IMG/VR virus record: IMGVR_UViG_3300032218_003043
Span: 1-25,146 of that record
DNA: 25,146 nucleotides
Source: a virus
Lineage: Duplodnaviria; Caudoviricetes
Reading direction: 5' to 3' (one strand)
Below are positions 1 to 24,679 of the stretch, in pieces. The position numbers and the translations under genes are program-made. The stretch's first letter is position 1. Each line of letters starts with the position of its first letter. The notes below the pieces were generated by a model. It was not told the DNA's origin, did not search any database, and saw only the letters and a list, made by a program, of their open reading frames with translations.

Positions 1-347
1 AGTGGCGAATGTTTGCACAAAGTAGCGAAAAGTACTACCTATTGCAAAACAATTATAGTTTTCTTTAATGTGGTCTGGCAAAACACCGAGCTGAGACCCA
101 AATAATAGCATAAATGCTAAAGAAAACTAGAGTACCCTATAATTATACCCCCTAGTATAATACCGCTCGGTAAAAATATACCCCCCCCTATTGATATCAA
201 GAGCAAATATTCCCCCTCGGTAAAAAATAGCCCCCCTACCTTATATATAGCACAGACAAAAAGTACTCCTAAAAAATATAGTTTATGCTTGGTGTGGAGG
301 TAATACGTACAAAAAAGTCGGCTGATGGCGTAAAAAAAACACCCCCC

Positions 348-368
348 CTATCTTGCTTCGCAAGATAG
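348..368 (-). promoter_or_regulatory. Perfect 9-bp hairpin with C-GAA-G triloop on the minus strand (GCGAAGC core)
   Basis: + strand CTATCTTGC-TTC-GCAAGATAG. The structure is clear; the function is inferred. Confidence 0.5.
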
Positions 369-392
369 AACCTAAATCGTAGGGCTTCGGGC

Positions 393-413
393 TTAATTCC
401 CTTCGGGAATTAA
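393..413 (-). promoter_or_regulatory. Second perfect 9-bp hairpin with C-GAA-G triloop on the minus strand
   Basis: + strand TTAATTCCC-TTC-GGGAATTAA. Different stem sequence, but the same loop and stem length as 348-368. Confidence 0.5.
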
Positions 414-436
414 ATCGCAAAAAAAAATCCCCTTTT

Positions 437-722
437 GCGTACACGCTCGCTCGAGTGTGTACGCTTGCACGCTTGCTCGCACGCACTCGCCTACGCACAC
501 ACGCTCGCCCAGGATCGCACGCACGCCCAGGCACGCATAGAGCTTTCGATTCACATTTCAAAATTTATTTGTTATTTAGAACGATTCTAAATTTCATCGA
601 ATATTTTTTTCTTTGCTTCGCTTCGCTTACATTACGCCCAAGCATAACGCTTGCACACACGCTCACGCATACGCTTGCGTACGCACGCAAACGGTTTTTC
701 TTTCACATTTCCAAATTTATTT
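437..722. repeat. Two GC-rich blocks of 4-nt-periodic WYGC (acgc/tcgc/ttgc), each followed by the 21-bp repeat TTCACATTTC(A/C)AAATTTATTT
   Basis: Blocks at about 437-538 and 613-688; 21-bp repeats at 550-570 and 702-722. Confidence 0.8.
574..592. promoter_or_regulatory. 19-bp dyad ATTTAGAA-N3-TTCTAAAT (Fur/PerR-like operator geometry)
   Basis: Perfect 8-3-8 inverted repeat; a second copy with one arm mismatch lies at 846-864. Confidence 0.45.
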
Positions 723-793
723 TCGTGAATTTAACATCGATTTTTTTGATATTTGTTTAAACGAACATTGAATCGATAAAATTATTTTCACTT

Positions 794-942
794 TGTAACT
801 TATTGAATTTCAACAACTTAAGATTTTTTTTTATCTTTTTTTAACATTTATAATGATTCTAAATAAGATAGTTAATTCATTGATAATCAACAACTTACAT
901 TTATCAATTTTCTTGTAACTCATTGATAATCAACAACTTACA
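794..942. repeat. Three copies of the dyad TGTAA-N4-TTGA-N3-TCAA-N4-TTACA, containing IHF-consensus sites (WATCAANNNNTTR)
   Basis: Copies at 794-820, 872-899 and 914-942. AATCAACAACTTA matches the IHF consensus exactly in copies 2 and 3, which also match on the minus strand. Confidence 0.75.
846..864. promoter_or_regulatory. Second copy of the 19-bp dyad (ATTTATAA-tga-TTCTAAAT)
   Basis: One arm mismatch relative to 574-592. Confidence 0.4.
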
Positions 943-965
943 CCGATTTTTTTATTCCGATTATT

Positions 966-984
966 ACCCTAATCTTTGTAGGGT
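966..984 (+). promoter_or_regulatory. Candidate early promoter: variant Bacteroidota -7 box (TAATCTTTGTA) inside the ACCCTA/TAGGGT inverted repeat
   Basis: Near-match to TAnnTTTG directly upstream of the structured leader; no clear -33 TTTG. Confidence 0.35.
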
Positions 985-1420
985 CGAAACAACAAAACGA
1001 CAACACAAAACAGACATACACAAACGATAAACACACACACAAAAAAACACTTTTTGCTTGCCTAAGTAATTTATTACACACAGCAAAAAGTTATCTGTCC
1101 AATTTACTGGTCAGTGCCATCTAATCGGGTAGTGGAAGAACTATACCCTTTGTGAGCGACTGCATAGTGTCGTGGCGAGCCTCTCGTGACCAAGTCAAAA
1201 AATCTACCTTAATAGGGTAGGCGAGGCGTATGTAAGTTCTTGGAGAGAAAACCGAGGGCGTGTAAGTCAAGGGATTAAACCCTCGCAATCATACTACTTA
1301 GGTTCAACCGCCCCTTAAGGGTGAGAAACCGAATAAATAAAGGTGCACTCAAACTATCGATGCCATCCGTAGCCTTTGACCTATGGGGTGCAGTCTGTCG
1401 TGTCAGACCATCGGTAGCCA
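983..1420 (+). ncRNA. Putative large structured RNA / 5' leader of the early transcript
   Basis: No ORF. Nested stems: 1049-1058/1082-1091, 1108-1113/1187-1192, 1116-1119/1173-1176, 1127-1148, 1156-1173, 1204-1220, 1228-1232/1290-1294, 1236-1243/1252-1259 (several G-U pairs, favouring the + strand) and 1270-1283. Confidence 0.55.
1354..1420 (+). ncRNA. tRNA-like element 1 (acceptor-like stem + T-arm-like hairpin + CCA)
   Basis: CTATCGATG (1354-1362) pairs with CATCGGTAG (1409-1417); GTCTG-tcgtgt-CAGAC; CCA at 1418-1420. Confidence 0.6.
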
Positions 1421-1432
1421 AACCTTTAATAT

Positions 1433-1825: not shown

Positions 1826-1848
1826 TTAAATAGTAAATCTATTATCTG

Positions 1849-1883
1849 AGCCCCATTCACAAGATGGGGCTTTTTCTTTTTTT
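1849..1883 (+). terminator. Rho-independent terminator
   Basis: AGCCCCAT-tcacaag-ATGGGGCT followed by TTTTCTTTTTTT. Confidence 0.85.
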
Positions 1884-1928
1884 AGTTAGATCCAGACTGG
1901 AGCTCACTCATCAGGGGGAGTCCCACCG

Positions 1929-1976
1929 TCCTATGCCATAGGGTTGCCGTCTGTTCAAGTCAGACCATAGGAGCCA
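1929..1976 (+). ncRNA. tRNA-like element 2 (mini-tRNA lacking D and anticodon arms)
   Basis: 7-bp stem TCCTATG/CATAGGA, 5-bp stem GTCTG/CAGAC with 7-nt loop TTCAAGT, discriminator G1973, CCA at 1974-1976, ATG at 1979. Confidence 0.7.
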
Positions 1977-1978
1977 TT

Positions 1979-2869: not shown

Positions 2870-2884
2870 ACTAACCTATAAACT

Positions 2885-3046
2885 ATGACCAAAGCACTCA
2901 TCACAGCCTCGCTCATCTTCGGATTGCTTGGTACTATCGTCTTCGTCTACTCAGTATTCACTTGTGATTTTGCAGTAGCACTTCCCTCTATGTTGTTCGC
3001 ATCCTTTTGGATTATCCTTGCTTGTAAATCTGAGACCCAAAACTAA
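2885..3046 (+). CDS. Small two-TM membrane protein (53 aa, not in ORF track)
   Basis: MTKALITASLIFGLLGTIVFVYSVFTCDFAVALPSMLFASFWIILACKSETQN; fills the gap between neighbouring genes. Confidence 0.7.
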   Translation: MTKALITASLIFGLLGTIVFVYSVFTCDFAVALPSMLFASFWIILACKSETQN

Positions 3047-3052
3047 AAACTT

Positions 3053-3361: not shown

Positions 3362-3372
3362 TCTGAGACCCT

Positions 3373-3608: not shown

Positions 3609-4328
3609 ATGTCTAAAAGAATTATCTACCGCCAAGGTGACACCGTCACCATCATCACTATGGGTGCAACATCCAACAAAAAGATTGCGATGCCCAAGGA
3701 GAAAATTGTACAGACCTACCACTTCAGTAGGGAGCAGTACGAGGTTGCCCAGGGGAAGACATCTATGCGAGAATTCTTCTCACACGATGGCAAGGTATGT
3801 ATGGACTGCCCATTTGCTGTCAGTAATGGGGCTCAGTTATCCGCTTGCTATACTCACAAGATGATGCAGTATAGCGGATTCCTATCCTCGCTCCGATCGA
3901 TCGGCAAACTACACGAGTCCTTTGATGACATACCCGACATAGATGCCAAGATTCATATGCAAATTGTAGGGCTATGCGAAAATAAGTATGTACGATTTGG
4001 TACATATGGTGAGCCATCTCTAATGCCCGTTGACTTGGTGGGAAACATTATCAAGGGTGCGAAATCTTGGACGGGATACACACACCAATGGCGTAAGAAA
4101 CCCGAATACGCCCCATACTTTATGGCTTCAACGCACACTGAATATGAGGAAACAGTAGCTTCACTCATCGGGTATCGGTCTTTTGTTGCATCACCCATAC
4201 CCATTGCACAATTCATATCTTGCCCCGCCTCTGAGGAAATGGGCTTCAAATCTAATTGCTCCAAGTGTGGAATATGCTCTGGCACTATGGGTAAGGGTAG
4301 CAAATCAGTAATCATTCTCGAACACTAA
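3609..4328 (+). CDS. Cys-rich phage protein, probably GP88-like / radical-SAM-related Fe-S protein
   Basis: CxxCP...CY near the N-terminus, RFGTYGEP, TGYTHQW, and C-terminal CP...CxxCxxC. Confidence 0.55.
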   Translation: MSKRIIYRQGDTVTIITMGATSNKKIAMPKEKIVQTYHFSREQYEVAQGKTSMREFFSHDGKVCMDCPFAVSNGAQLSACYTHKMMQYSGFLSSLRSIGKLHESFDDIPDIDAKIHMQIVGLCENKYVRFGTYGEPSLMPVDLVGNIIKGAKSWTGYTHQWRKKPEYAPYFMASTHTEYEETVASLIGYRSFVASPIPIAQFISCPASEEMGFKSNCSKCGICSGTMGKGSKSVIILEH

Positions 4329-4611: not shown

Positions 4612-4868
4612 TAAACCTATCTAAAACACAAGTCTCTTGGGACTCGCAAGTAATCGCATTCAAGTGGTATCAGAACATCGGTGATGCCCTCTCTCACTTT
4701 GCTCACTTCTCTTCTTTCAAATCTGAGGCCCAAAGAGAAGAAGCACTACAATTAATTGATTCCTATACAAAAAATTGGCGAACTAAACACGAAGACCTTA
4801 TCATCCTCGAAAAAAATGTAATCATTGCACCAATCAAATCAGACAAACCAACAATAGCAAAAGTATGA
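4608..4868 (+). CDS. Hypothetical protein
   Basis: 86-aa ORF with ATGA overlaps on both sides. Confidence 0.75.
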   Translation: MINLSKTQVSWDSQVIAFKWYQNIGDALSHFAHFSSFKSEAQREEALQLIDSYTKNWRTKHEDLIILEKNVIIAPIKSDKPTIAKV

Positions 4869-5274: not shown

Positions 5275-5477
5275 TAAAATTAACGATATCAGAGAGAAAA
5301 GAATTTGTCTATATCAACCCTAATCACATTGGTCATCTCTATCGAGTACCCTACACAGAAAAATATAGTAAACCAATCGAAGAGCATACAAGAGTTGGAG
5401 TAACAACTCACAACAATGGAGGCTTTGAAGTAAAAGAAACACCCGAACAAATCATCAAACTAATAGAAAAACTATGA
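5268..5477 (+). CDS. FlbD/SwrD-like small protein, copy 2 (start moved to ATG 5268)
   Basis: MLIKLT...YINPNHI...VKETPEQIIKLI; paralogous to the preceding ORF. Confidence 0.55.
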   Translation: MLIKLTISERKEFVYINPNHIGHLYRVPYTEKYSKPIEEHTRVGVTTHNNGGFEVKETPEQIIKLIEKL

Positions 5478-6145
5478 GAAAACTTAATGTATTAATCGCT
5501 TGTGAATTCAGTGGCACCGTTCGTGATGCCTTTCGTAAACTTGGTCACATCGCAGTAAGTTGTGACCTCGAACCTACCGATGCCCCTGGGCTACATCACC
5601 AAGGTAGTGTATTGGAGATATTCGATAAGAATCCTTTTAACGACCAAAAGTGGGACTTAATGATTGCCCACCCACCTTGTACCTACCTTACCTTAGCGGG
5701 TAACAGATGGTTCAAGCCCGAATACGCTGATAAGTTTCCTACTCGTATTCAAGACAGACAAGATGGTGTTGACTTCTTTATGGAACTTATGAACGCTAAC
5801 ATACCACACATATGTGTAGAGAATCCTATTGGGGTTATGTCCTCTCTCTTTCGTAAGCCCGACCAAATCATTCAACCTTGGCAGTTCGGAGACCCATTCC
5901 AAAAGTCTACTTGCCTATGGTTAAAAGATCTGCCTTCACTCATCAGTACCAATATCGTTGAGAAAGGTGAATTCTTTGAATGGACTGATAAGAAAACCGG
6001 CAAGGTTAAACGCCAAGCACAATGGTATATGGATGCCCTAAAAGGTAAGACTGCATACGAACGACAGAAGATTCGTAACAAGACCTTCCAAGGTATAGCC
6101 GATGCCATAGCCGACCAATACTCAACATACATTTTAACAAAATAA
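5474..6145 (+). CDS. Short DNA cytosine-C5 methyltransferase-like protein
   Basis: VLIACEFSG (variant motif I), SCDL, AHPPC (catalytic PC) and VENP. Confidence 0.8.
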   Translation: MRKLNVLIACEFSGTVRDAFRKLGHIAVSCDLEPTDAPGLHHQGSVLEIFDKNPFNDQKWDLMIAHPPCTYLTLAGNRWFKPEYADKFPTRIQDRQDGVDFFMELMNANIPHICVENPIGVMSSLFRKPDQIIQPWQFGDPFQKSTCLWLKDLPSLISTNIVEKGEFFEWTDKKTGKVKRQAQWYMDALKGKTAYERQKIRNKTFQGIADAIADQYSTYILTK

Positions 6146-6849: not shown

Positions 6850-7545
6850 ATGCCAAACCATGTTTATTACCACTTCATCCCTGCTGAATTAACCGCAGAG
6901 CAGACAGAAAAACTACACACAATTGCCCGGACTCTTAATGGATTTTGTGGTCACTACCGCCCAATGCCCGATGACATCCGCAACACTACATCTCCTTGTC
7001 GTATTGTAACTCAGAAGGAGTACAATAAACAAATGAAGGAGAACGAGAAGATCGATCGGACTCAGCCTTGGTATCACGAACCTAAGCCCATCACCAAGAA
7101 GATGCAGAAAGCATTGATTGAGAAGTATAGCACAGACAATTGGTACAATTGGGCTTACGACAATTGGGGTACTAAGTGGGGATGTTATGACCACGACATT
7201 GACGGTGGTAACCTACGCTTCTCTACCGCTTGGAATCTATTTGATATCTCTCTGCTTACAGAGATAGCAGTTGACTTCCCTACATTCGTCTTAGCCTATG
7301 AAGAAGAGCAAGGATGGGGTGGTGAGTTTGTATTCGAAGATGGCGAATGTATTGAACGCACAGAATACGATGCACCTACGTGGCACTCTACTGATATCGA
7401 AACAGAAGATGGAACTATCACGCAGTTGTTGTTCCCAATATCTGAGTCCCATTTCAATGAGGGTGCTGACGAAGGTTACTACTATGACTATGACACCAAC
7501 TGCCCCGTTCCTGAAAGTTTCTTAAACCAATATAACTTAAAATAA
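6850..7545 (+). CDS. DUF1281/YubB (Api92-like) ferredoxin-like-domain protein
   Basis: MPNH start, WYNWxxxNWGTKW, FSTAW and YEEExGWGG motifs. Confidence 0.75.
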   Translation: MPNHVYYHFIPAELTAEQTEKLHTIARTLNGFCGHYRPMPDDIRNTTSPCRIVTQKEYNKQMKENEKIDRTQPWYHEPKPITKKMQKALIEKYSTDNWYNWAYDNWGTKWGCYDHDIDGGNLRFSTAWNLFDISLLTEIAVDFPTFVLAYEEEQGWGGEFVFEDGECIERTEYDAPTWHSTDIETEDGTITQLLFPISESHFNEGADEGYYYDYDTNCPVPESFLNQYNLK

Positions 7546-8898: not shown

Positions 8899-9522
8899 AT
8901 GAAAGTATTAGAATTATTCGCAGGTTCTCGCAGTATCGGTAAGGTATGTGATGAGTTAGGTCACGAGGTTTTCTCCTCAGATTGGACTCCCTATGAAGGT
9001 ATAAACTATGTGGCTGATATCAATCAGTTCAATGCAGATAAAGTACCCTTCATCCCGGATATGATTTGGGCCTCACCTCCGTGTACTACATTCTCTGTTG
9101 CCTCTATAGGTAAGCATTGGACATTAGATCGGAGACCCAAAACACAAGATGCTATTATGGGCTTGCAGATCCTTAAGAGAACGATTAGCATCATCGAGTA
9201 TTATCAGATGTTGAACCCCAATCTAATATGGTACATTGAGAATCCAAGAGGTATGATGCGTAAGATGGATGTATGGGGTAAGATACTCCACATCCGTAAC
9301 ACTGTCACCTATTGTCAGTATGGCGATACCCGTATGAAACCTACAGATATTTGGACCAATAACTACCAATGGCAACCACGCCCAGCCTGTAGTAACGGAA
9401 TGTCTTGTCACATCTCTGCCCCCCGTGGTAGCAGAACCGGTACTCAAGGCCTGAAAGGTTCTTACCTCAGATCACAAGTCCCACAACAATTATGTAAGGA
9501 GATAGTAGAATGTACTCATTAA
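8899..9522 (+). CDS. Short DNA cytosine-C5 methyltransferase-like protein
   Basis: VLELFAGS (motif I), ASPPC, IENP, YCQYG and KPTDIW. Confidence 0.85.
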   Translation: MKVLELFAGSRSIGKVCDELGHEVFSSDWTPYEGINYVADINQFNADKVPFIPDMIWASPPCTTFSVASIGKHWTLDRRPKTQDAIMGLQILKRTISIIEYYQMLNPNLIWYIENPRGMMRKMDVWGKILHIRNTVTYCQYGDTRMKPTDIWTNNYQWQPRPACSNGMSCHISAPRGSRTGTQGLKGSYLRSQVPQQLCKEIVECTH

Positions 9523-11630: not shown

Positions 11631-12125
11631 ATGAATTACTATTTGGACTCAGACCTTAATTTAATCCCCCGACCTAAGAAACCTTGGGGGAAAATACTAA
11701 TTGTACTCTTGATGTTATCAATTGTATACTTATTGGTGAAATTACTTACAACTACACCAACTTTTAAAGTTGTGTATAAATATATTCACCCTACAGAACA
11801 GCAAGATATTGAATTGTCTGAAGAGGCAATTGTTAAATGTTTGCACGACAACGGTTGCGTTCTAGCCAATGTGGCTGTGGCCCAGGCGAGATTAGAATCA
11901 AATCTTGGAAAGAGCAATGTAGGAAAGCAAGCCAAAAATATGTTCGGCATCACTCATCACAAATGCAAATATGTTTCTGGTAAACATGGGGTGTACGCCA
12001 AGTATAAAACATATGAGGATAATATTAAATGCTACATTCACATTCAAGATCGATATTTGCAGAACATCAACGGTGTGTATGCAACTGATCCTACTTACAT
12101 CACTAAACTAAAAGAACAGAAATGA
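11631..12125 (+). CDS. Membrane-anchored glucosaminidase (GH73-like peptidoglycan hydrolase)
   Basis: N-terminal TM helix; AQARLES, NMFGI and YATDPxY motifs. Confidence 0.8.
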   Translation: MNYYLDSDLNLIPRPKKPWGKILIVLLMLSIVYLLVKLLTTTPTFKVVYKYIHPTEQQDIELSEEAIVKCLHDNGCVLANVAVAQARLESNLGKSNVGKQAKNMFGITHHKCKYVSGKHGVYAKYKTYEDNIKCYIHIQDRYLQNINGVYATDPTYITKLKEQK

Positions 12126-12382: not shown

Positions 12383-12543
12383 ACAAAGTATATGAGATTA
12401 AACGATTAGACTTCGCATTGTGCGAACACGATCCTAGGGCTCAGAGTGTCTGTGAACCACCTAAAGCACTAACCTTTAATGAATTCCAAAAGAATGTTAA
12501 AAAAGAACTAAAAAAATTATATGACAATCAGAGAAGCAATTAA
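12379..12543 (+). CDS. Small hypothetical protein (54 aa, not in ORF track)
   Basis: MNKVYEIKRLDFALCEHDP...; ATGA overlap with the upstream gene. Confidence 0.55.
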   Translation: MNKVYEIKRLDFALCEHDPRAQSVCEPPKALTFNEFQKNVKKELKKLYDNQRSN

Positions 12544-12905: not shown

Positions 12906-13126
12906 AAGCAATACTAGAATTTAATTTACCAGAAGACCAATTAGAATTTGACCTAATGAGTAAAGCATCTAAGTGGTACAACCTAGCGTGGGAATTAGAC
13001 CAGCACTTAAGGTCTCAGACCAAGTACGCCCCCGATACTATGCCCGATGAGTACTACAAGGCCCTCAAGGATACACGAGATAAACTTTATGCTTTACTTC
13101 TTGAAGATGGTTTATCATTTGACTAA
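12902..13126 (+). CDS. Hypothetical phage protein (MKAILEFNLPED type)
   Basis: 74-aa ORF. Confidence 0.8.
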   Translation: MKAILEFNLPEDQLEFDLMSKASKWYNLAWELDQHLRSQTKYAPDTMPDEYYKALKDTRDKLYALLLEDGLSFD

Positions 13127-14865
13127 TGAACGCAGATAAACTAGTCAAGTTAGGCATTGACTTACGAGATCGATGGAGCGGAGAGGTTAAGACTGTCTGC
13201 CCTAAGTGTGCTCATACTCGCAAGAAGAAGAATGATCCATCCTTAGGCGTTAATATAGACACCGGAGTATGGAAGTGTCACCACTGCGGTTGGAGTGGCT
13301 CAGTGAACCAGTATGTGCGTCCTGAGGCCCGTCCAGAAGTTTCGCAACCTAAAATCTTTGAGTACTTCGAGAATCGTAAGATAACTCCACAGACCGTTAA
13401 GCATTTTCGCATCAGCGAATCTAAGGAATGGATGCCACAAGACCAGGCAGAACACAAGGTCATATGTTTCAATTACTTTCTCAATGATGAATTGATTAAT
13501 ATAAAATTCAAGACATCAGACAAGAAATTTAAAATGGTCAAGGATGCCAAGAAAGTTCCCTACAATATAGATGCGATTAAAAATTCACCATATGTTATTA
13601 TTTGTGAAGGAGAAGAAGAGACAATGGTCTGGCATCAGTCTAACTGCGTTGGAATTTCTGTACCTAACGGTGCTTCTGTTAATAACAATAACCTCGATTG
13701 GTTGGACGGTGTGTATGACTTATTTACCGATAAGATAATATACCTTGCCACCGATAACGATGAGCCAGGCCGGAAGTTAAAGACCGACATTGCTCGCAGA
13801 TTTACCCATCACGATATAAGAATCATAGACTTCCCTCTTAATGAGAAGGATGCCAATGACTGCCTCAAGCGGTATGGACAAGAGTTTATCACACGCTTAT
13901 TCCACGATGCCAAGCCTCTACCAATTGCCGAGATATCCTCGGCAGTTGACTACTTATCTGTAGTCAACTCATATAGGACAGATGGGTATCCGATTGGGGC
14001 TCACGTAGGAATGTCTGAGACCGATGAGCATCTTTCTTGGAGCAGAGGAGAATTAGTTGTTGTAACAGGTATTCCAGGATCAGGCAAGAGTACTTGGCTT
14101 GACTTTATGTTTATACGCCTTGCTTATTTGAAAGGATGGCGTTTCGGAATGTTCAGCCCAGAGAACCTTGCCCCCTTAAAAATCACACGGATGAGCGAAC
14201 AACTGCTTGGCAAAGCACTAAACAAAATGAACTCTGTAGAAGTTGAAACTGCTGTTGGAATCATAAACAAACACTTTTGGTTTTACAATGTCGAAACCAT
14301 CCAAGACTACAGCATCACCAACCTATTGCGTTTGGCTGAGATGTTGGTTAAGCGTAATGGTATTGATTGCTTATGCTTAGATCCTTTTAACTACATCGAG
14401 CAAGATAGTTCTGAAGAGAGTTCTAACGAGAAGATTGGTAACTTGTTACGCAAACTAAAGCAGTTCGCTGTTAAGTTTAATGTCAATGTATGCCTAGTGG
14501 CCCACCCTCGTAAGATGGACAAGACAGCTTCTGGTTACAATGTACCTCGTCTGTACGATATTTCGGGCTCACATCATTTCTTTAATGTACCCGACATTGG
14601 TATTGCAGTACACAGAGCGTTTCAGAACGGACAGAAAGATCCGGTAGAAGTACACATTCAGAAAATGAAATACCATTTCCGTGGTAAGTTGGGCCGAATA
14701 GATTACGAGTTTAATCGTGAGTCGGGTCAGTACACAGAAGATGGAATCTTTAACAATTTAATGACGATAAAAAATGATATTGAGACAACTGAGAATGATT
14801 TGTTTAACTCACCAAATGCGTGGGGAAGAGGTGCTGGAATTCAACCTGAGTCCATATTATTTTAA
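13126..14865 (+). CDS. Bifunctional primase-helicase (Twinkle / T7 gp4-type)
   Basis: Zn-binding CPKC...CHHC, TOPRIM (CEGEE, DNDEPG, KDAND), SF4 helicase Walker A GIPGSGKS, LDP, AHPRK and DISGS. Confidence 0.93.
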   Translation: MNADKLVKLGIDLRDRWSGEVKTVCPKCAHTRKKKNDPSLGVNIDTGVWKCHHCGWSGSVNQYVRPEARPEVSQPKIFEYFENRKITPQTVKHFRISESKEWMPQDQAEHKVICFNYFLNDELINIKFKTSDKKFKMVKDAKKVPYNIDAIKNSPYVIICEGEEETMVWHQSNCVGISVPNGASVNNNNLDWLDGVYDLFTDKIIYLATDNDEPGRKLKTDIARRFTHHDIRIIDFPLNEKDANDCLKRYGQEFITRLFHDAKPLPIAEISSAVDYLSVVNSYRTDGYPIGAHVGMSETDEHLSWSRGELVVVTGIPGSGKSTWLDFMFIRLAYLKGWRFGMFSPENLAPLKITRMSEQLLGKALNKMNSVEVETAVGIINKHFWFYNVETIQDYSITNLLRLAEMLVKRNGIDCLCLDPFNYIEQDSSEESSNEKIGNLLRKLKQFAVKFNVNVCLVAHPRKMDKTASGYNVPRLYDISGSHHFFNVPDIGIAVHRAFQNGQKDPVEVHIQKMKYHFRGKLGRIDYEFNRESGQYTEDGIFNNLMTIKNDIETTENDLFNSPNAWGRGAGIQPESILF

Positions 14866-15016
14866 AGAACTCAAAAATGGATATTTTACTTACAACAATA
14901 TTAAAATACTAGTTTATAGCACTGGTTGGAACAAGATAAAAGATTATTATTATTTAGAAATTCAAACTCCCGAAGGTATTGTGATGTGTCATAGTTTAAC
15001 ATATAAAATAAAATGA
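14774..15016 (+). CDS. Hypothetical protein (true start may be ATG 14816)
   Basis: Bridges the helicase and polymerase genes; ATGA overlap with the polymerase. Confidence 0.55.
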   Translation: MILRQLRMICLTHQMRGEEVLEFNLSPYYFKELKNGYFTYNNIKILVYSTGWNKIKDYYYLEIQTPEGIVMCHSLTYKIK

Positions 15017-16941
15017 TAAAAGTATATGATGTAGAAACATTTTCTAATTGTTTTACTTACATAGATTATGATCCTCAGACCGAGGAAATGAATGAGTTCG
15101 TGATTACTGATTTCAAGAATCAATTCGATGAGTTTGTTAAGTATATCAAGATGCTTGAACAAAAGAAAGCCGGAATGGTAGGCTTTAATAACCTACACTT
15201 TGATTGGCCAGTGGTGTCTAGCATCGTGGAAAGTCGATTGAATAAAGGAGAATTGATATACGCCTTTGCTCAGACATTAATCAACGCTGAGAAAAAGACT
15301 TATAGCAAGCAGACCATTAATCAATTGGATTTGTATCTGCTAAACCACTATGACAATAAGGCGAGGTCAACTTCTTTAAAAGCCTTAGAGGTTTCGTGTG
15401 GATGGGATAACGTAATGGATATGCCTATGGACCACACCACCACCATTACTCCAACCAATCTGCCTACTCTATTAGAATACAACAAGAACGATGTGCTATT
15501 CACCGCCAAGTTCTATTCTATGTGCAAGGAGAAGATAGAGTTGCGTAAAAAAATCAGTAAGAAGTACAAACTTAAGGTGATGAACAAGAGCGATGTAATC
15601 ATAGGCGAGTCAATCTTTTTGAAGTACCTATCTGATAATATGGGAATGCCGGTACCCGAGCTGAAAGAGATACGTGGGAAGAGAACAGATGTCGCTCTGA
15701 AAAAGATTATCTTTCCTTATGTTTCCTTTGTTGAGCCTGGCTTTCAGAAGTTGATGAGACTAATGCAAGGAACTGTATCGTCTGCACAATTCCTTAAGAA
15801 TTTTGTAGAGAATATGGATACTCGATTATCTACCAATGATTTATACGACAAATTTCGTGATAACAATATTCGAGTACAGAGAATCGCCCAACAAAAGAAA
15901 TCATTCTCATTCAGCGTTCAGTACAACAATATTCAAATCGATTACGGAGTAGGTGGTATACACGGATGCGTTAAGCCAGGGGTATATCAGTCAAATTTTA
16001 CACACGGAATACTTGACATCGATGTGAAGTCATATTACCCTAACTTGTTTATTCAGAATCGCTTACACCCTAAACAGATGGACCAAGATACCTTTGTCAA
16101 GGTATACTCTGATATCTTCCAAGAGAGAGTCAAGGCACAGAAAGAAGGGGACAAGTTAACCTCTGATGCATTGAAGTTGGCACTGAATGGTTTGTTTGGT
16201 AAGACGGGCTCAGATGTATCTTGTTTCTACGATCCGAATGTATTCTTTGCAGTCACTGTAAACGGACAATTGCTTTTATCAATGTTGGTAGAACGCTTAG
16301 TTCGCCAAGGTGCATCCCTATTGCAAGTTAACACAGATGGTGTAACAATTTTATATAATTATTTGTTACGAGATGATATCATAAAAATCTGTCAAGAGTG
16401 GGAAGTAATCACCAAGTTGCAATTGGAATACGCTAATTACTCCAAGATGATTATCCGGGATGTAAACAATTACATTGCTGTAGATGAATTCGGAAAGATT
16501 AAAGAGAAGGGAGCTTTTGAAACCAAGAAAGATTGGCACAAGGATAACTCATATATGGTCGTGCCTCTGGCAGTACGAGAATACTTTGTAAACAATACGC
16601 CCATCGAAGTTACATTACGCAAGCACAAGAACATCTTGGACTTCTGTGGTCGTTACAAGGCTTCTAAGGGCTGGCACGTAGAGTTTGCTTACCTTGATGG
16701 CAACGAGGAAAAGAGATTGGAATTCGGTAAGATTTATAGGTTTATTCCGGTAATCAAGGGCGGTGTATCGCTTAAGTTAAATAAGGATGGTAGACAGCAC
16801 CACTTGTGCGAGGGATATCAAACCTTCCCCTACAATAAATTGGAGGAATTTGATTTGAATAATTTAAATATGGACTTTTTTATAAAGGAATGCAACAAAC
16901 TAATAGAACTGATCAAACCGACCCAACTCACGCTATTATGA
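15013..16941 (+). CDS. polB: Family B DNA polymerase with 3'-5' exonuclease
   Basis: ExoI YDVETF, ExoII FNNxxFD, ExoIII YNKND; polymerase motifs DVKSYYP, KLALNGLFGK and NTDG. Confidence 0.92.
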   Translation: MIKVYDVETFSNCFTYIDYDPQTEEMNEFVITDFKNQFDEFVKYIKMLEQKKAGMVGFNNLHFDWPVVSSIVESRLNKGELIYAFAQTLINAEKKTYSKQTINQLDLYLLNHYDNKARSTSLKALEVSCGWDNVMDMPMDHTTTITPTNLPTLLEYNKNDVLFTAKFYSMCKEKIELRKKISKKYKLKVMNKSDVIIGESIFLKYLSDNMGMPVPELKEIRGKRTDVALKKIIFPYVSFVEPGFQKLMRLMQGTVSSAQFLKNFVENMDTRLSTNDLYDKFRDNNIRVQRIAQQKKSFSFSVQYNNIQIDYGVGGIHGCVKPGVYQSNFTHGILDIDVKSYYPNLFIQNRLHPKQMDQDTFVKVYSDIFQERVKAQKEGDKLTSDALKLALNGLFGKTGSDVSCFYDPNVFFAVTVNGQLLLSMLVERLVRQGASLLQVNTDGVTILYNYLLRDDIIKICQEWEVITKLQLEYANYSKMIIRDVNNYIAVDEFGKIKEKGAFETKKDWHKDNSYMVVPLAVREYFVNNTPIEVTLRKHKNILDFCGRYKASKGWHVEFAYLDGNEEKRLEFGKIYRFIPVIKGGVSLKLNKDGRQHHLCEGYQTFPYNKLEEFDLNNLNMDFFIKECNKLIELIKPTQLTLL

Positions 16942-17237: not shown

Positions 17238-19038
17238 CGGTCTTCCAGACACGCACATATCTACCACCTCTGAGTTCCAAAAATGGTATCTCCTTGGTGG
17301 TTAGTGCTTGTGGTTTCTTTACTTCGAACTTACGTATAATGTTTTTGTGGAGAATCTCACAGGCAACCATAGCATCGACAACATCCGTGTTTTCAATCAA
17401 GTAATTCTTGAGCTCTTGAATTATTTCAATAAACCATATGTCATTGCTATACGAATTTAAATAATCAATCATATAACTATTGCCACGTTCTGCTGTCACA
17501 TCATTCTTATAGTAACCTATAGAATCATCATCCTTCCAGAATCCTTTCCCCAAGAAGATAGGTTTCTTTGCTAGCAGATTTAATTTACCTGAGTCCTTGT
17601 ACTTCTGTTTTACAACACCACCACGGTTAATCTCTATCATTGCTATGGCGTTATTATAATACTCTTGAAGTAGTATCATATTGTTCACAATAGCATCTGG
17701 ATCGGTATCTCTTTCAGCATAATATGCTACATACCTGTTGGTATCTATGTCTTTGATTGCTATTGCTTGCTTAGACCCATCACCCATATTCTTAGAGTTA
17801 AATGGAATCGGGTCAATCCCAGCGATGTATGTATGTCCTTCTTGGGGATCTTCAAGAAAATACATAGGGCTATTGTTAACCGGCCTTTTAATTATCGTTC
17901 CGTCATAATTTCTGTGTAAAACTGATCTATCGATAGGAGGACGAGACGCTAAAATCATACGCTCTTGCGTATCCAATTTATCCATAATCGATCTTGGAAA
18001 AGCACCTTGACCACTTACTGAGAATACCTCTTGGATGTCCAAAGGGTATTGTTTAATAAAAGAATTCAAATACGATTTATCTTCCATACTGTCAAGCACA
18101 CCACGTGTTTGCATAATCCAATCTGTCGCAGCCTTCTCATCGCTGTAACCATTGGGGCAGAAGTTTAATATTTTGCCAGTTTCCTTACCATTTTCGTCTA
18201 ATTCGGGGGCTTCCATAATCCCTTGATAGCCAGGGAGAAAGATAGTTAGAATCTTCAAAGCCTCGGCATTATCCCACAATGTTTTGGCTAACTTCTGGCC
18301 AATTGATGTAGCCTCACCAGCGCTACCACCAATGACAATTGGGGCAACCTTAACGAATCCTGATTTGGTACTCGCTTGAGCCGATTTATAAACCTTATCG
18401 GCCTTAGGATGAAGCATACATTCGTCTATAAAAATATGCATCGCACGATACGCCTCGAATGCTGTTGGTGTTTCAACTGTCTCCTTGGTGATAATCTGAG
18501 AATCCAATCCGGTAACTGAGCCCGTCTTGGCATCCCTACGACCTAAGTGGAGGTATCCTTCTTGACGAGTAGATACAATTCCAGGACGGGCATACTCTTC
18601 AAACTCATCGTACACTACACGTGTCTTATCTTTAAACAAAGCCTCAAGACGTTTTTTATCTGCTGAGGTGATGAGTGATGTGCTTCCAGGATTGGTCATC
18701 GCAATCCACATTGGAATGATTCCACCAAAGATAAAAGATAGACCAACCTCACGTCTCTTAGTTACAAATAAATCGTGATTGGTTCTACGGGCTTCCATAT
18801 ATCCCTCATAGATTAATTCATCTATATCTCGCCAAAGCGGTCTTTTTTTGAAACCTCTGGCGTCTTTTACCCATCCTTGTGTTAGTGCAAAGTAGTGAGG
18901 ACCAGTCAATCCGAAACGACCTTCAATCCAAAAAACACGTTCTTGTGCCCACCAGATATCCTTTTCTTTCATAGAAGCTAAGGGGCTCAGACCGTACTTG
19001 CTGAACCATTCGTCATATACGAATTTAGGTTTTTTCAT
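17227..19038 (-). CDS. terL: Terminase large subunit
   Basis: KRREVGLS (Walker A variant), IFIDE (Walker B), RNase-H-like nuclease YIAGIDP...IEINRG...DVVDA. Confidence 0.88.
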   Translation of the reverse strand: MKKPKFVYDEWFSKYGLSPLASMKEKDIWWAQERVFWIEGRFGLTGPHYFALTQGWVKDARGFKKRPLWRDIDELIYEGYMEARRTNHDLFVTKRREVGLSFIFGGIIPMWIAMTNPGSTSLITSADKKRLEALFKDKTRVVYDEFEEYARPGIVSTRQEGYLHLGRRDAKTGSVTGLDSQIITKETVETPTAFEAYRAMHIFIDECMLHPKADKVYKSAQASTKSGFVKVAPIVIGGSAGEATSIGQKLAKTLWDNAEALKILTIFLPGYQGIMEAPELDENGKETGKILNFCPNGYSDEKAATDWIMQTRGVLDSMEDKSYLNSFIKQYPLDIQEVFSVSGQGAFPRSIMDKLDTQERMILASRPPIDRSVLHRNYDGTIIKRPVNNSPMYFLEDPQEGHTYIAGIDPIPFNSKNMGDGSKQAIAIKDIDTNRYVAYYAERDTDPDAIVNNMILLQEYYNNAIAMIEINRGGVVKQKYKDSGKLNLLAKKPIFLGKGFWKDDDSIGYYKNDVTAERGNSYMIDYLNSYSNDIWFIEIIQELKNYLIENTDVVDAMVACEILHKNIIRKFEVKKPQALTTKEIPFLELRGGRYVRVWKTVKI

Positions 19039-19382
19039 CGCCTAGTATTTACACGATCAAGGAAAGAACCTTCCTCATCGTCTTTATTTTCTTCTGGATA
19101 CGCCTCTAACTTGGCTAACTTAAGGCTCTTGTTAATCTTATCTCCTGCTTGTAGCAATTGAAACAAACCTTTCTGATATGAATCGTCAAGGTCTAAGGTC
19201 TTATCCTTTACAGAAGTCATCAATTGTTTTGATGCTGAGACCAAAGTTGTATAAAAATCCTTGGCAGGATCGAAATCTTGCAGATGTAATCTTTCGATTG
19301 CTTCCTCTTCAGAAATACTATTTTCCTTGAGGTAGTCCCAAAGTTTTTCTAAGGCTGTTGATTTTTCGTTTTTGGTCTTCAA
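19035..19382 (-). CDS. Helical protein upstream of terL; candidate terminase small subunit (TTG start proposed)
   Basis: Stop overlaps the terL ATG; TTG at 19382 follows an A-rich leader. The function call is positional only. Confidence 0.45.
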   Translation of the reverse strand: MKTKNEKSTALEKLWDYLKENSISEEEAIERLHLQDFDPAKDFYTTLVSASKQLMTSVKDKTLDLDDSYQKGLFQLLQAGDKINKSLKLAKLEAYPEENKDDEEGSFLDRVNTRR

Positions 19383-20120: not shown

Positions 20121-20816
20121 TTATTTGTATCTCCAGCCATATCCGTACGCTTGTTTAAACTTGCCTTTGCAAACCGACCCAATGTTTGACCTATAAGCCA
20201 AATTTTCCAACTTAATAGCAGCGTTTGAAACTGAATCAAATTCCTCCATAACCATACCCGTGCTTAAACTTAGTTGTTCAATAGGTCGCTTAAAACAATG
20301 TTCGTTTCTACCTTTTAATGTTTGACTTATTTTCTCTCTTGTTTCAGTTGATATTAATTTTCCCTTATTGCTTACGCTCATTTTTATTTTAGATTCTTCG
20401 GAATGCTTTCTGCCAATTCTTGCTAATGAAATTTTCCTCTTGCTTTCTTCAGACATTACTTTTCCTTTGTGCAAAATACTATTTTTAATTTTAGACTCCT
20501 CCGATGCAACTCTTCCAGTTGGTCCACGTCCTCCATCGCACAAATTTAATCCATTAGATTTCGGATATTTGGCACAATTGGTTTGCAATTCTTCAATCCA
20601 AAACTTTTCACGCTCCATTAAAATTTCAACATCAACTTGTTCTATGATTTCAAGTTTATGACCATCAAATCCATATTTTTTAAGACTTCGATACAGCCTG
20701 TGTTGATTTTTACATTGTAAGGTTTTATAATAACGAGTTCGTTTTGCTAAATCCATAGTTTGCCCTATGTATATTTTTCTAGACGGACTTACTATTTTAT
20801 AAATTACACCTTTCAT
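20121..20816 (-). CDS. Free-standing GIY-YIG homing endonuclease with NUMOD3-type repeats and a C-terminal HTH; start moved to ATG 20816
   Basis: GVIYKI...IYIGQT, four SEES/STET-KxKIS repeats, C-terminal FDSVSNAA...AYGYGWRY. Confidence 0.9.
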   Translation of the reverse strand: MKGVIYKIVSPSRKIYIGQTMDLAKRTRYYKTLQCKNQHRLYRSLKKYGFDGHKLEIIEQVDVEILMEREKFWIEELQTNCAKYPKSNGLNLCDGGRGPTGRVASEESKIKNSILHKGKVMSEESKRKISLARIGRKHSEESKIKMSVSNKGKLISTETREKISQTLKGRNEHCFKRPIEQLSLSTGMVMEEFDSVSNAAIKLENLAYRSNIGSVCKGKFKQAYGYGWRYK

Positions 20817-21256
20817 ACTATAAATTCTTGTTTGGGCACAAATATACACAATTCTTTCGGAACTCTATAAAATTCATCTGTTCCTTTTCTTTGTGTTGTA
20901 TTGATGTAAATTTTCTCTTTATATTTCTCATCAAAGATAATGTCTGATCTACACATCAAAGCAGCTTGGGTCTCAGAGCATATGATAACATACCAGAACG
21001 TAGTTTCTTTCCATTTCGCCTTTCTATTGAGAAAGGAGACAGTCTCAAATGGAAAATCTTCTCTACAGGTCCAAGGTCTTTTAATCTTCATCTCCACCTC
21101 CCATTTGTATTCTATGCCATCTTTTTCTGTGACAAGATCAATACCATATTTGTCACAATTATTTGAAACATTGTGACACTTACTTTCAAGAAAGGCAGTA
21201 AGCAATTGCCTGCCTATCTTATCATATTCATCAAAAGATTCTTGGTTGAACTTCAT
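20813..21256 (-). CDS. PD-(D/E)xK-like nuclease-fold protein; start moved to ATG 21256
   Basis: YGIDLV...WEVEMK motif; ATGA overlaps at both ends. Confidence 0.6.
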   Translation of the reverse strand: MKFNQESFDEYDKIGRQLLTAFLESKCHNVSNNCDKYGIDLVTEKDGIEYKWEVEMKIKRPWTCREDFPFETVSFLNRKAKWKETTFWYVIICSETQAALMCRSDIIFDEKYKEKIYINTTQRKGTDEFYRVPKELCIFVPKQEFIV

Positions 21257-21657: not shown

Positions 21658-21659
21658 AG

Positions 21660-21669
21660 TGCAAAGATA
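21660..21669 (-). promoter_or_regulatory. Bacteroidota -7 box TATCTTTGCA directly before ATG 21657
   Basis: Exact TAnnTTTG match. Confidence 0.65.
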
Positions 21670-21674
21670 AGATA

Positions 21675-21901: not shown

Positions 21902-21905
21902 TAGT

Positions 21906-21960: not shown

Positions 21961-21962
21961 AA

Positions 21963-21996
21963 TGCAAACTTATGCAAAAAATCCTTAAATGCCAAA
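21963..21996 (-). promoter_or_regulatory. Consensus Bacteroidota promoter (-33 TTTG, 20-nt spacer, -7 TAAGTTTG)
   Basis: TTTG at 21996-21993, TAAGTTTGCA at 21972-21963. Confidence 0.75.
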
Positions 21997-22018
21997 TTTG
22001 TGAAAAACAACCAATATA

Positions 22019-22371
22019 TTGTGCAATTTGTGCAATTTTGGGATCATTTAACCATTATAATGTGCAATTATGGTACAATAATGAGCTTTAAGACACCCAA
22101 CAGGGTACGAAAATGAGCCATATATGACACATTATATGCGTTCGGGTATACACTAAACGATTCTAGTGGGGTTTCGCAAATTGATATATGCACTTCAATA
22201 TAATTTTCTAAAAACTAAGGCATGAAAAAACACAAAAAATGTATGAATAATCAGTCATAATATGCATTTAGATACATTAATGTATGAAAAAACCCACACT
22301 ACTGTCAAATAATGTGGGTCTTCTCGGCATTTTTCCGAATTTGTCCTGTTTTTATTGCAAAAAACTAGACA
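22019..22371. repeat. Array of distinct short imperfect palindromes
   Basis: Examples: 22113-22132, 22133-22150, 22151-22168, 22181-22198, 22243-22258, 22272-22285, 22324-22338 and 22342-22371. Confidence 0.6.
22287..22319 (-). terminator. Rho-independent terminator downstream of the RNR gene
   Basis: Minus strand ACCCACATTATT-tgac-AGTAGTGTGGGT followed by TTTTT. Confidence 0.75.
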
Positions 22372-22377
22372 TTTTAC

Positions 22378-24237
22378 TTATGAAATCTCACAAGCACCAC
22401 CAGCGCAAGCGACTTGCTCACTTAGGCTAGTCTTGTCGCTAATCTCTACAATTTTTGCGACATCCAAAGCGTTACAATTTGTAACGAGTTGCTCGTATTG
22501 CTCCTTTGTAATGCTTTCGAATGGAGTCTGTTGATACGATCCTAAGTCTTTAGGTAAGAAGGAAAGACCATTGTAGTGGTTTTGATTTTCCCATAACCAT
22601 TCTCCTACCATTGCCCACTCGTTTTTCTTCAGCGTAACTGTTGCACTGACGTTATGAGTGTTTTCTCCTGCTATGTGGCCAGGTTTGATCCATTTCTCGT
22701 GGATTAACTTCACCCTCTCTAGGAATTGAATAGCACTCTCTGAGCCCCTTGTAATAGCCCCTTGTGGAGCAGATACAGGAACAGATACAACCGATTGATT
22801 CTGTGGAGACATTACATCGTCCTCAAGCAATTCTGGATGATATACCGATAGGTATGTATATAAAGCCTCGTTCTTACCCAAACGGATTCTGCGCAAGTAG
22901 TATTGGTCATGCCAAGCGTGTACCCCAGAAGATGTTCCTAAGACCAAAGAAGAGGTTCCTGATGGCTTAACACAAGTGATTCTGTAAGCACTTTTAATTC
23001 CAATTTCATCGGCAGTACTTCTATTGACTCTATAAGCAACCTCAGCAGCTTCTGGCATATCTAATTCAAGAACTTTGCCCGATGCAATACCCGTCATTCC
23101 GATTCCCAATAATGCTTCTCTCTCCGTTACTTCTTTCCACTCTTGTCTGAGGTAATGAAAATCAGTATAAGAGGCTTGGAGCGTTCCAATAAAGGCTGCT
23201 GCGGCTGTTCTTTCTTCGTAGTCATGCTGATCGATTAAATCGGAGGCATTGATTTCTACAAGGTTACAGAACTGAAAAGAATTCAAAGAAATCTCACAGC
23301 AAGGATTCGTACCCAATTCAATATCATTGGTGAAATAGAAACCCGGTTCGCCAGAGTTACTTAGTTCAACCTTCTTCCATAAATCCAAAAAGTCGCTTTT
23401 AGTGACAGCACCATTCCTTTTGATAACGGCACTGTTGTTAGAACGACCACGTTGAGGATTTAACTCCCACCAATTACCAAACTTTGAAGTCAACATTGTT
23501 TCATCATTGTAATCAAACAAAGAAATCATTGCTGACCTACGGATTCCACCGCTTAGTACAGCATTTGCAATGTGACATAGGATATCGTGGCACTCTAAGG
23601 ATGATAGTTGTTCTCCATCTTGTTTGCGTTCGAGAATGCTTTCGATATGCATTAAACAAATCTTCAAAGGCTCTGGACCTGGAGCAACCCCACCACTTGT
23701 AATTAGTCTCTCCCCCTTTGCACGGATGGCACGATAATCAAAATTGGGTTTCCATTTGCTGAGACCCAAATAAGACTTCATCAAAACCTTAATTGAATCG
23801 GCCCATCCCTCAATGTTATCAGGAATTAAATATCTCCGATTGGTTTTTGCTTTTTGTACGGCTGGCAATTTAGCCACGTGATGCCTTTGAACCGAATAGC
23901 CAACGCCTGTACCAGACAATAATAAAAACATCGTCTCATTAAATGCCCTATAGTCATCAATGTGCAGATAACTACAATTGAATAGGCGAGCATTGTTGAC
24001 CTCAATCGGCTTACCGCCAAACTGAAGTGAGCGCATAGACGGAAGAACTTTTTTGTCATATACAAATTTGTAAGCGTTTTTGATTTCTGATTCTAATTTA
24101 GGAAACTTACGAATGTGCATCTGCATATTGCGATCCACAATCTCTTTCCATGTTTCTCTCCTCTGTAAACTTTCTTGAAACTTGGCGTACTTAGACCATA
24201 CTACAACGTCAGATAAAATTTTGTGTTCTATATTCAT
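22378..24237 (-). CDS. nrdJ: Class II (adenosylcobalamin-dependent) ribonucleotide reductase, monomeric RTPR type
   Basis: LPSMRSL, FNCSY, TNPCCEI active-site loop, KPSGT, C-terminal CAGGAC redox pair; no beta-subunit gene adjacent. Confidence 0.88.
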   Translation of the reverse strand: MNIEHKILSDVVVWSKYAKFQESLQRRETWKEIVDRNMQMHIRKFPKLESEIKNAYKFVYDKKVLPSMRSLQFGGKPIEVNNARLFNCSYLHIDDYRAFNETMFLLLSGTGVGYSVQRHHVAKLPAVQKAKTNRRYLIPDNIEGWADSIKVLMKSYLGLSKWKPNFDYRAIRAKGERLITSGGVAPGPEPLKICLMHIESILERKQDGEQLSSLECHDILCHIANAVLSGGIRRSAMISLFDYNDETMLTSKFGNWWELNPQRGRSNNSAVIKRNGAVTKSDFLDLWKKVELSNSGEPGFYFTNDIELGTNPCCEISLNSFQFCNLVEINASDLIDQHDYEERTAAAAFIGTLQASYTDFHYLRQEWKEVTEREALLGIGMTGIASGKVLELDMPEAAEVAYRVNRSTADEIGIKSAYRITCVKPSGTSSLVLGTSSGVHAWHDQYYLRRIRLGKNEALYTYLSVYHPELLEDDVMSPQNQSVVSVPVSAPQGAITRGSESAIQFLERVKLIHEKWIKPGHIAGENTHNVSATVTLKKNEWAMVGEWLWENQNHYNGLSFLPKDLGSYQQTPFESITKEQYEQLVTNCNALDVAKIVEISDKTSLSEQVACAGGACEIS

Positions 24238-24239
24238 AA

Positions 24240-24638
24240 TTAAAATGCTTTTCCGTGTTTGTAGCCTCTAAGAGAATTGTACTTCATCTTCAACTCGATA
24301 TGTTTCTCAAGGTCAATGTTCATACCTCCGCAAAGGTCAAACAAACGGATAGCAACATCGGCAACTTCATCTTCGAAAGATGATTTGATTTTCTCCTCGA
24401 ATAAAGATTTCCAAATTCCAATGTCCATCTTGAACTCCTCATCGTAGTTATTCAATTCTAAATCTTTCTGTAATCCATCAGCAATGGATTTTTCTGCGTA
24501 GTGACCTTTACGCAGTGCTTCTTGGGCTTCTGCTAGTTCACTAACAATTAACATTAACATCTCGGAGACGTTTCTTTCCGTGTCCCAAAAGCCTTTATCT
24601 TTGGCTACTTGGTGTGCTTTCTTAACTAAATCTTTCAT
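24240..24638 (-). CDS. MazG-like NTP pyrophosphohydrolase
   Basis: SELAEAQEA and EDEVADVAIR acidic motifs; C-terminal KMKYN..R.YKHGK. Confidence 0.85.
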   Translation of the reverse strand: MKDLVKKAHQVAKDKGFWDTERNVSEMLMLIVSELAEAQEALRKGHYAEKSIADGLQKDLELNNYDEEFKMDIGIWKSLFEEKIKSSFEDEVADVAIRLFDLCGGMNIDLEKHIELKMKYNSLRGYKHGKAF

Positions 24639-24644
24639 AAGGGC

Positions 24645-24679
24645 TACAAATATAATCTGAGACCGAATGAGAAAGCAAA
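24645..24679 (-). promoter_or_regulatory. Consensus Bacteroidota promoter for the MazG-like/nrdJ unit (-33 TTTG, 21-nt spacer, -7 TATATTTG)
   Basis: TTTG at 24679-24676, TATATTTG at 24654-24647; ATG 8 nt downstream. Confidence 0.7.

Follow-up and report, generated by a model that had tools for sequence, protein, structure and literature searches.

A selected, strand-biased DNA word in a freshwater crAss-like phage family and its candidate phage-encoded readers

The stretch analysed here (the window) is 25,146 nt of viral DNA (Duplodnaviria; Caudoviricetes), positions 1 to 25,146 of IMG/VR record IMGVR_UViG_3300032218_003043. It carries 23 copies of the gapped 8-bp word CTGAGNCC, 15 on the + strand and 8 on the - strand, together with genes for a T7 gp4/Twinkle-type primase-helicase and a phage DNA polymerase. 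An earlier note, made from the letters alone, had proposed the word as a DNA-level signal, and we confirmed every coordinate and strand that it gave. The copies, the base at the free position N, and the two replication genes are as follows (ORF, open reading frame; aa, amino acids).

91..98, + strand: word copy, N=A, intergenic
1846..1853, + strand: word copy, N=C, intergenic, in a terminator-like stem
3030..3037, + strand: word copy, N=A, sense in a 53-aa ORF
3363..3370, + strand: word copy, N=A, intergenic
3829..3836, - strand: word copy, N=C, antisense in a 239-aa ORF
4723..4730, + strand: word copy, N=G, sense
7058..7065, - strand: word copy, N=T, antisense
7442..7449, + strand: word copy, N=T, sense
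11645..11652, - strand: word copy, N=T, antisense in a glucosaminidase-like gene
12437..12444, - strand: word copy, N=C, antisense
13011..13018, - strand: word copy, N=A, antisense
13126..14865, + strand: T7 gp4/Twinkle-type primase-helicase with Cys4 zinc finger, TOPRIM and DnaB-like helicase (matches to phrog_239, Toprim and DnaB_C)
13322..13329, + strand: word copy, N=G, in the primase-helicase gene
14015..14022, + strand: word copy, N=A, in the primase-helicase gene
14846..14853, + strand: word copy, N=T, at the end of the primase-helicase gene
15013..16941, + strand: phage DNA polymerase (phrog_1252)
16206..16213, - strand: word copy, N=C, in the polymerase gene
17589..17596, + strand: word copy, N=T, antisense in the terminase large-subunit gene
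18516..18523, + strand: word copy, N=C, antisense in the terminase large-subunit gene
18983..18990, - strand: word copy, N=C, sense in the terminase large-subunit gene
19235..19242, + strand: word copy, N=A, antisense
20969..20976, - strand: word copy, N=A, sense
22740..22747, + strand: word copy, N=C, antisense in a ribonucleotide reductase gene
23759..23766, + strand: word copy, N=A, antisense in a ribonucleotide reductase gene
24657..24664, + strand: word copy, N=A, intergenic

By our gene set, 19 of the 23 copies are genic and 4 intergenic, with genes of both orientations and several reading frames represented, in agreement with the earlier note, which had also placed one copy in a terminator stem. 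Its flanks were reproduced as well (a 5′ T in 14/23 and a 3′ C in 12/23), and the base after the 3′ flank is A or T in 22/23 copies. The estimate of about one copy by chance held at 1–2: dinucleotide shuffles gave 1.40 ± 1.37 copies, with 0 of 100 reaching 23, and Markov models of orders 1–4 gave 1.0–2.4. The G+C content, put at roughly 37%, is in fact 38.6%. With the 4 intergenic copies left in place, 1000 synonymous-codon shuffles yielded a mean of 5.1 and a maximum of 9 copies. The enrichment thus survives codon-aware and Markov-aware nulls, one of the two checks that the earlier note had named. CTGAGNCC had the top score among all 7-mers and one-gap 8-mers of the window, and the word is sharp, since its 21 single-mismatch variants occur only 0–6 times each.

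The window is part of a 63–72 kb freshwater crAss-like phage. Its near-complete relatives span that size range and encode a crAss-type muzzle and ring protein, a portal, a 448-aa capsid protein and a cargo protein of 3,000–4,200 aa; the sequencing runs containing window DNA are mostly freshwater metagenomes, with no RNA dataset among those listed. All 15 relatives fetched carry CTGAGNCC, at 6–46 copies each against 2–3.5 expected. Likewise, two or more copies (0.23–1.44 per kb) are present at each of the 99 loci retrieved with the terminase and polymerase, a redundant set that includes many contigs twice. A profile built from 225 sites reads T(0.69)-CTGAG-N(A 0.47)-CC-S(0.82)-A-A.

Comparison of these relatives revealed purifying selection on the word and turnover of individual sites. 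Third-codon positions at its fixed letters were conserved in 501 of 588 cases against 342.7 expected (nine genes, disjoint pairs, both directions counted), while those at N behaved like background (35/46 conserved versus 32.3 expected), bearing out the proposal of a signal kept at the DNA level and passing the second check that the earlier note had named. Across the same nine genes, again counting both directions, there were 186 cases of a site being kept and 78 of its loss. Four genes, each with 22–45 sequences less than 90% identical, showed 13–21 different site columns per gene, most of them present in few lineages; where amino acids permit the word, it was used 210 times against 18.9 expected in these genes. 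The word also has clade dialects. It is 16-fold enriched with an S-W tail in the window's clade, 8- and 6-fold enriched with a C-C tail in two others, and 4-fold enriched in the relaxed form CTGARNCC in a fourth. In the alignment, five low-density genomes combine the relaxed CTGARNCC with an ICFNY-to-INFNY change in the primase domain. As a replacement word in low-density relatives, ACCTTNGG was discarded, being weak over whole records and not among the top words under codon shuffling.

Strand bias and spacing were assessed in the 16 family genomes, turned so that the primase gene lies on the + strand. The word occurs 299 times on this strand and 132 times on the other (2.3:1), the polarity expected of a Chi site in a phage genome, and 40 versus 13 times outside called genes. 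It is found all along the + strand, and - strand copies lie chiefly in the early arm; a model based on replichore halves found no support for these - strand sites (27 versus 16 in the two late halves), their density following the early arm. In 10 diverged genomes, same-strand pairs closer than 300 bp numbered 10 against 29.8 expected, with 0 of 1000 null runs as low, and opposite-strand pairs 20 against 23.6 (P = 0.26). For all 16 genomes the figures were 15 versus 35.6 and 23 versus 26.8, same-strand pairs falling below their own null in 11/16; as the genomes are related, the spacing P values are optimistic. Only same-strand neighbours are avoided, which points to a reader working on one strand or in one direction. 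This speaks against two of the earlier suggestions, a nick mark and a site for a duplex genome-organising protein.

Programmed single-strand nicks, base modifications in virion DNA or biased repair without selection are, as a class, highly improbable sources of this pattern. In favour of them, the window encodes several nucleases and two methyltransferase-like genes. A serine recombinase gene is also among its genes, and positions of others are as follows.

5474-6145 and 8899-9522: two methyltransferase-like genes (phrog_757)
20121-20816: a GIY-YIG/NUMOD3 homing endonuclease gene, among genes of late orientation

BLAST matches to the methyltransferase genes, however, were confined to the window's subclade, and five relatives with no such match (G312–G316; G, C and L labels are our own handles for genomes, contigs and loci) keep 21–37 copies, which leaves a modification mark, as the earlier note had considered, without support as far as these two genes are concerned. 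A DnaA-type helix-turn-helix protein and a ribbon-helix-helix protein were set aside as readers on the same grounds. Opposite-strand pairs closer than 50 bp are slightly few (1 versus 3.8, P = 0.10), but copies lie on both strands, opposite-strand neighbours are not avoided at 300–400 bp, and a mutational drive in repair would not be expected to set copies at even distances along a single strand. In T5- or tf-like phages, all programmed nick sites lie on one strand; here the division is 15 versus 8 in the window and 299 versus 132 in the family, although a word from a third phage group, described below, is one-stranded. Mycobacteriophage L5 stoperators are mostly intergenic and oriented with transcription, whereas 378 of the 431 family copies lie within called genes, 267 of these antisense.

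Two further groups have words of like build. An outward search with primase alignments, in which 80 of several hundred IMG/VR matches were kept per search, led to a second crAss-like family (family 2, the window's own being family 1), comprising G471–G473 and 20 further loci. Loci of this family are L422–L441, L555, L562 and L574. Its primase is 35–38% and its exonuclease 29–34% identical to those of family 1, and its gene content includes an integrase-like 434-aa gene, a Rad52-like annealase, a YqaJ exonuclease and a Twinkle-type primase. The family 2 word is C-Y-CCCGA-N-C-T-G (core CCCGA-N-C; A 0.44 at N). Its strand counts favour the primase-coding strand in all three genomes (50:19, 25:15 and 22:7), and pairs closer than 500 bp numbered 16 on the same strand against 28.2 expected and 27 on opposite strands against 21.7. 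Group 3 consists of 18 closely related loci (L523–L554) with the word GGTC-N-CCC (A 0.73 at N), which at these loci lies 78:1 on the primase-coding strand, with 3 gaps below 1 kb against 10.5 expected and a median gap of 3.3 kb. On that strand it is enriched in genes of both orientations (22 versus 3.3; 19 versus 6.6), and on the other strand it is not enriched (8 versus 12.7; 3 versus 3.2). Together with the 40 versus 13 copies outside genes in family 1, this enrichment in both gene orientations shows that the polarity goes beyond a coding effect. The 5′ halves of the three words are unlike. What the words share is a free position, mostly A, then an invariant C and a tail rich in pyrimidines, and with respect to the primase gene all three are written on the same strand. 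All three groups encode both a Twinkle-type primase (the homologues of family 2 and group 3 are at L342 and L550) and a 327-aa YqaJ exonuclease.

We looked for the word in 401 Bacteroidota genomes, a host phylum to which the sequence signals described below point. In 301 genomes from the phylum to which G006 belongs (a Kapaibacterium bin, which we take as Bacteroidota), density peaked at 0.21 per kb and the ratio to the reversed control at 5.8, with none near the density of the window's clade; these 301–401 genomes are a sample of a large phylum. Genomes with the highest ratios were dominated by CTGAGGCC, and their excess was gone once N was A or T. The family of G202 showed a modest excess over the reversed control and was dropped as a lead, CTGAGGCC dominating this excess in G202. 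G145, the clearest outlier of the 401, was dismissed too, its excess being an intergenic repeat. This dispersed repeat (L292, L295, L298, L301) contains TCTGAGACCC and has about 48 copies. A further outlier, G116 (16 versus 1), was left unexplained. No strand (replichore) skew of the word was seen along the single-contig genome G346, nor was the family 2 word found at the level of a host signal in 151 genomes. DNA uptake sequences and HIP1 reach hundreds to thousands of copies per bacterial chromosome, and no such copy numbers were seen in the sampled bacterial genomes. The earlier ideas of a host Chi-like site or a host-protein binding site therefore found no support across the 401 genomes: host-like enrichment was found in none of them, and skew, assessed in G346 only, was not seen there.

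The word could still be the Chi of a host lineage outside this sample, accumulated to engage host AddAB or RecBCD as in Chi-rich lambdoid phages, which we consider improbable. In phage LLS, Chi occurs 23 times (every 1.86 kb, oriented 20:3), and in MD8 it is oriented 32:0 (PMC12315714), so the density and polarity of the word are reachable for Chi. Those sites, like ours, form a polar 8-mer array of about one per 2 kb, far over chance; some Chi-rich phages also carry an exonuclease (PMC12315714). In LLS and MD8, however, the word is the host's Chi, clustered near one end in mostly recombination-module-free phages (PMC12315714), whereas the present word is evenly spread, variable by clade, carried by phages with their own exonuclease and not enriched in the sampled hosts, with the missing skew in G346 and the 151-genome result for family 2 pointing the same way.

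Two observations point to a reader encoded by the phage: the word and its 3′ tail vary from one phage clade to another, and the search for a host-like signal found none. The primase-helicase and the polymerase were each found in 16/16 family genomes. The best PDB sequence matches of the former are DNA primase/helicase and Twinkle chains, and its class assignment comes from sequence matches; an AlphaFold2 model of it has a predicted local distance difference test score (pLDDT) of 75. Its zinc finger is nearly invariant within the window's subclade. Both this and the ICFNY-to-INFNY change that accompanies the relaxed word count in favour of the primase as reader. As for T7-type primase sites, a primase-helicase with zinc finger, TOPRIM and DnaB-like parts is thus encoded on the same replicon as the word, and same-strand spacing and polarity are compatible with such a site, but equally with any directional reader.

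Our leading, still tentative, explanation is that the word is a long, phage-specific priming site for the phage's own primase, a reading absent from the earlier note's list of candidates. T7 primase makes pppAC on 5′-GTC-3′, with a cryptic C 3′ of the T, and uses 5′-GGGTC-3′ (PMC5737085); for the plant homologue, Twinkle, C-rich primers on 5′-(G/C)GGA-3′ and a cryptic part of two bases are described (PMC5737085, PMC10557236), a lengthening that works through the zinc finger (PMC10557236). The opposite strand of all three phage words reads 5′-G-T-[cryptic]-3′, and the commonest family 1 variant contains GGTC. This shared A-C register, together with the two-base cryptic part of plant Twinkle, leads us to read the words as priming sites with a long cryptic element.

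Under this priming hypothesis, the primase-helicase (13126-14865) would prefer templates containing 5′-GGNCTCAG-3′ or its complement. An enzyme of the T7 gp4/Twinkle type would read the template strand 5′-SGG-N-CTCAGA-3′, in which CTCAGA may serve as a long, lineage-specific cryptic element, and would lay down primers pppN-C-C-S, most often pppACC, every 2–3 kb per strand, probably for extension by the phage polymerase (15013..16941). The strand on which the word is written would be the nascent lagging strand at a fork co-directional with the late genes. This main fork may then account for the surplus on the primase-coding strand, and a second fork for the additional sites that the early arm has on the opposite strand.

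The resemblance to the sites of T7 gp4 and plant Twinkle lies in the same enzyme family being encoded beside the sites, an asymmetric strand-specific word, GGTC in its commonest variant and a C-rich tail that would be the primer (PMC5737085, PMC10557236). Those known sites have 3–5 nt with one or two cryptic bases, whereas the word here has 7 fixed and about 3 preferred letters, most single-mismatch variants being near background, is 4–16-fold enriched depending on clade, and is a candidate, not a demonstrated, priming site. A site of 8 nt, 5′-TTTGGTTA-3′, is read by the primase-polymerase of phage NrS-1, although that enzyme is an archaeo-eukaryotic primase with a helix-bundle domain that also primes at GTG (PMC8718748) and the present one a zinc-finger TOPRIM primase. 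In its mode of action the word resembles a primase site or a Chi site, and it departs from each in one defining respect, length for the former and host enrichment for the latter.

Several observations weigh against the priming hypothesis. A site of 8–10 nt would be new for an enzyme class whose known T7-family sites have 3–5 nt, and T7's own primase sites are only 1.2–1.5-fold enriched in T7. The link between primase and word is drawn from sequence, the match to the T7 register was noticed post hoc, and the ICFNY change represents one or two evolutionary events. No strong long word was found beside homologous primases in six cultured phages (31–38% identity), in the complete records G478 and G479, or in the crAss-like G474 and G475, which are 79% and 64% complete. 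The primase of G475 nests among word-bearing clades in one tree and beside family 1 in another, and the three word-bearing primases form no single supported clade. L521 and L522 hold both primase and exonuclease yet show no polar word, and G309 carries only 6 copies despite its intact primase. Finally, the word co-occurs equally with the 327-aa YqaJ exonuclease, which is replaced in G474 and G475.

More broadly, at about 17 further loci with the primase alone the words seen were weaker, and the primase trees disagree on where G474 and G475 belong. Each word is confined to one primase clade, related primases lack words, and the exonuclease co-varies; neither the primase nor the exonuclease gene alone sufficed for the word's presence. 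G474, G475, G478, G479 and the six cultured phages have the primase but not this exonuclease, and G476 and SPP1 the exonuclease but not the primase. Candidate words in other genomes were rejected: the counts of GANTTAGA in JQ and phi10:1, two other phages, come from codon use (24 versus 21.0; 33 versus 25.0), ACGGNCG in G479 falls mostly in one reading frame and is clustered, and CCCTGGT in G476 belongs to an excess of CCWGG and is neither polar nor evenly spaced. CCWGG-containing words are in excess in G474, G475, G476, L521 and L522, at 2- to 4-fold over a third-order Markov model in G474–G476. Separately, AGCGG, which we take to be the Bacillus subtilis Chi, is enriched 2–3-fold in phages sniff9-2 (L286) and phi10:1 (L289), as is AGCGGC in SPP1 (L511), where its strand counts are 52:19.

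The co-variation with the exonuclease brings in a different reader. The word might stop or pause the phage's own 327-aa YqaJ (lambda/SPP1-type) 5′–3′ exonuclease in a strand-specific way, limiting resection of phage DNA and passing its ends to an annealing protein while word-less host DNA is degraded; we hold this to be unlikely. All three word-bearing groups encode the enzyme (the G001 copy is at L104:16253-17233, and another lies at L408:14618-15598 on the minus strand), the family 1 and family 2 exonucleases form one clade apart from those of SPP1 and Firmicutes (SH-aLRT 90), and polarity and same-strand spacing suit any directional reader. G474 and G475 have structural genes like those of family 2 (51–56% identity) and the same primase type but no long word, and in G475 the exonuclease slot is filled by DUF3799 and a RecT-like gene. 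Lambda exonuclease pauses strand-specifically at GGCGA(TTCT) and belongs to the same broad family (PMC7496540), although that is a stochastic pause at a short motif and no selected genome-wide array (PMC7496540). The exonuclease of G476 (87% complete, with no match to a Twinkle-type primase) nests in the same clade without a long polar word, which counts against this idea, as do SPP1, also lacking such a word, seven Firmicutes prophage-like loci that show nothing comparable, and L521 and L522, which have the gene and no polar word. The exonuclease would also leave the shared (A)C register unexplained, and a single literature search found no 8-bp-specific stop for this enzyme family. A YqaJ exonuclease was likewise sought in sniff9-2, phi10:1 and other cultured phages, with no match.

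Another conserved phage protein that moves along a strand, such as the terminase or packaging motor, the ejected cargo proteins of 3,000–4,200 aa, a helicase loader or the polymerase, could bind or stop at the word. We regard this as quite unlikely. In its favour, both family 1 and family 2 are crAss-like and orient their words alike with respect to the structural genes, and several universal genes have no family assignment. But G474 and G475 share the portal, terminase, capsid and cargo genes of family 2 and are word-less, a homologue of the window's polymerase was not found in the examined parts of G471–G473, and we saw no positive link to any such protein.

A literature search, mostly of open papers, returned no paper on the word strings, on over-represented primase sites in phage genomes or on octamers in Crassvirales, and on freshwater crAss-like primases nothing relevant by title and the start of the abstract. 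The sequence suggests a host in the phylum Bacteroidota, because TAnnTTTG-type words, presumably Bacteroidota promoter words, lie near 21660 and 21965, and homologues of the primase occur in Flavobacterium and Cellulophaga phages. Searches with the terminase and capsid protein found no cultured relatives, those with the window's polymerase or primase found no bacterial records, and tRNA scans gave no lead to a host. By one simple pattern, no DFDGD-like motif was found in 15 giant proteins. Relative G002 has a predicted transfer-messenger RNA gene at L109:4798-5144.

Within the window (1-25146), CATG, AGCT, CGCG and GATC are strongly avoided, and the two phrog_757 methyltransferase-like genes are present. 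The region at positions 1-1430, upstream of small early genes, is a long non-coding one that includes low-complexity tracts rich in (A)CGC at about 430-690. It may be a genome end or origin; gaps resembling it also occur in G001 and G002. In a Sphingomonadaceae genome bin (G007; contigs C18, C22, C34, C40, C41 and C45; L100, L501), small word-dense contigs carry the ribonucleotide reductase and exonuclease of family 1. These contigs are probably mis-binned phage, and the word can thus serve as a tag that exposes phage contigs inside a bacterial genome bin.

On balance, we find it fairly probable that crAss-like phages of Bacteroidota have evolved private 8–10-base 'self' words for an enzyme of their own replication or recombination, either a T7-type primase with a long lineage-specific code or a lambda-type exonuclease with its own Chi that spares the phage and degrades host DNA. 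If so, the three natural word and enzyme sets (CTGAG-N-CC, CCCGA-N-C and GGTC-N-CCC) would permit the code to be read by domain swaps, and because three related enzyme sets go with three words, specificity is testable with purified proteins and synthetic oligonucleotides, with no need for phage culture. If the exonuclease reads the word, it would constitute a phage-encoded Chi system for marking self and non-self, of which we found no report. If the primase does, a T7-type primase can gain specificity for its own genome over that of its host, and the priming sites, fork direction and Okazaki spacing of an uncultured virus would be readable from its sequence; such phages would be writing a replication map into their genes.

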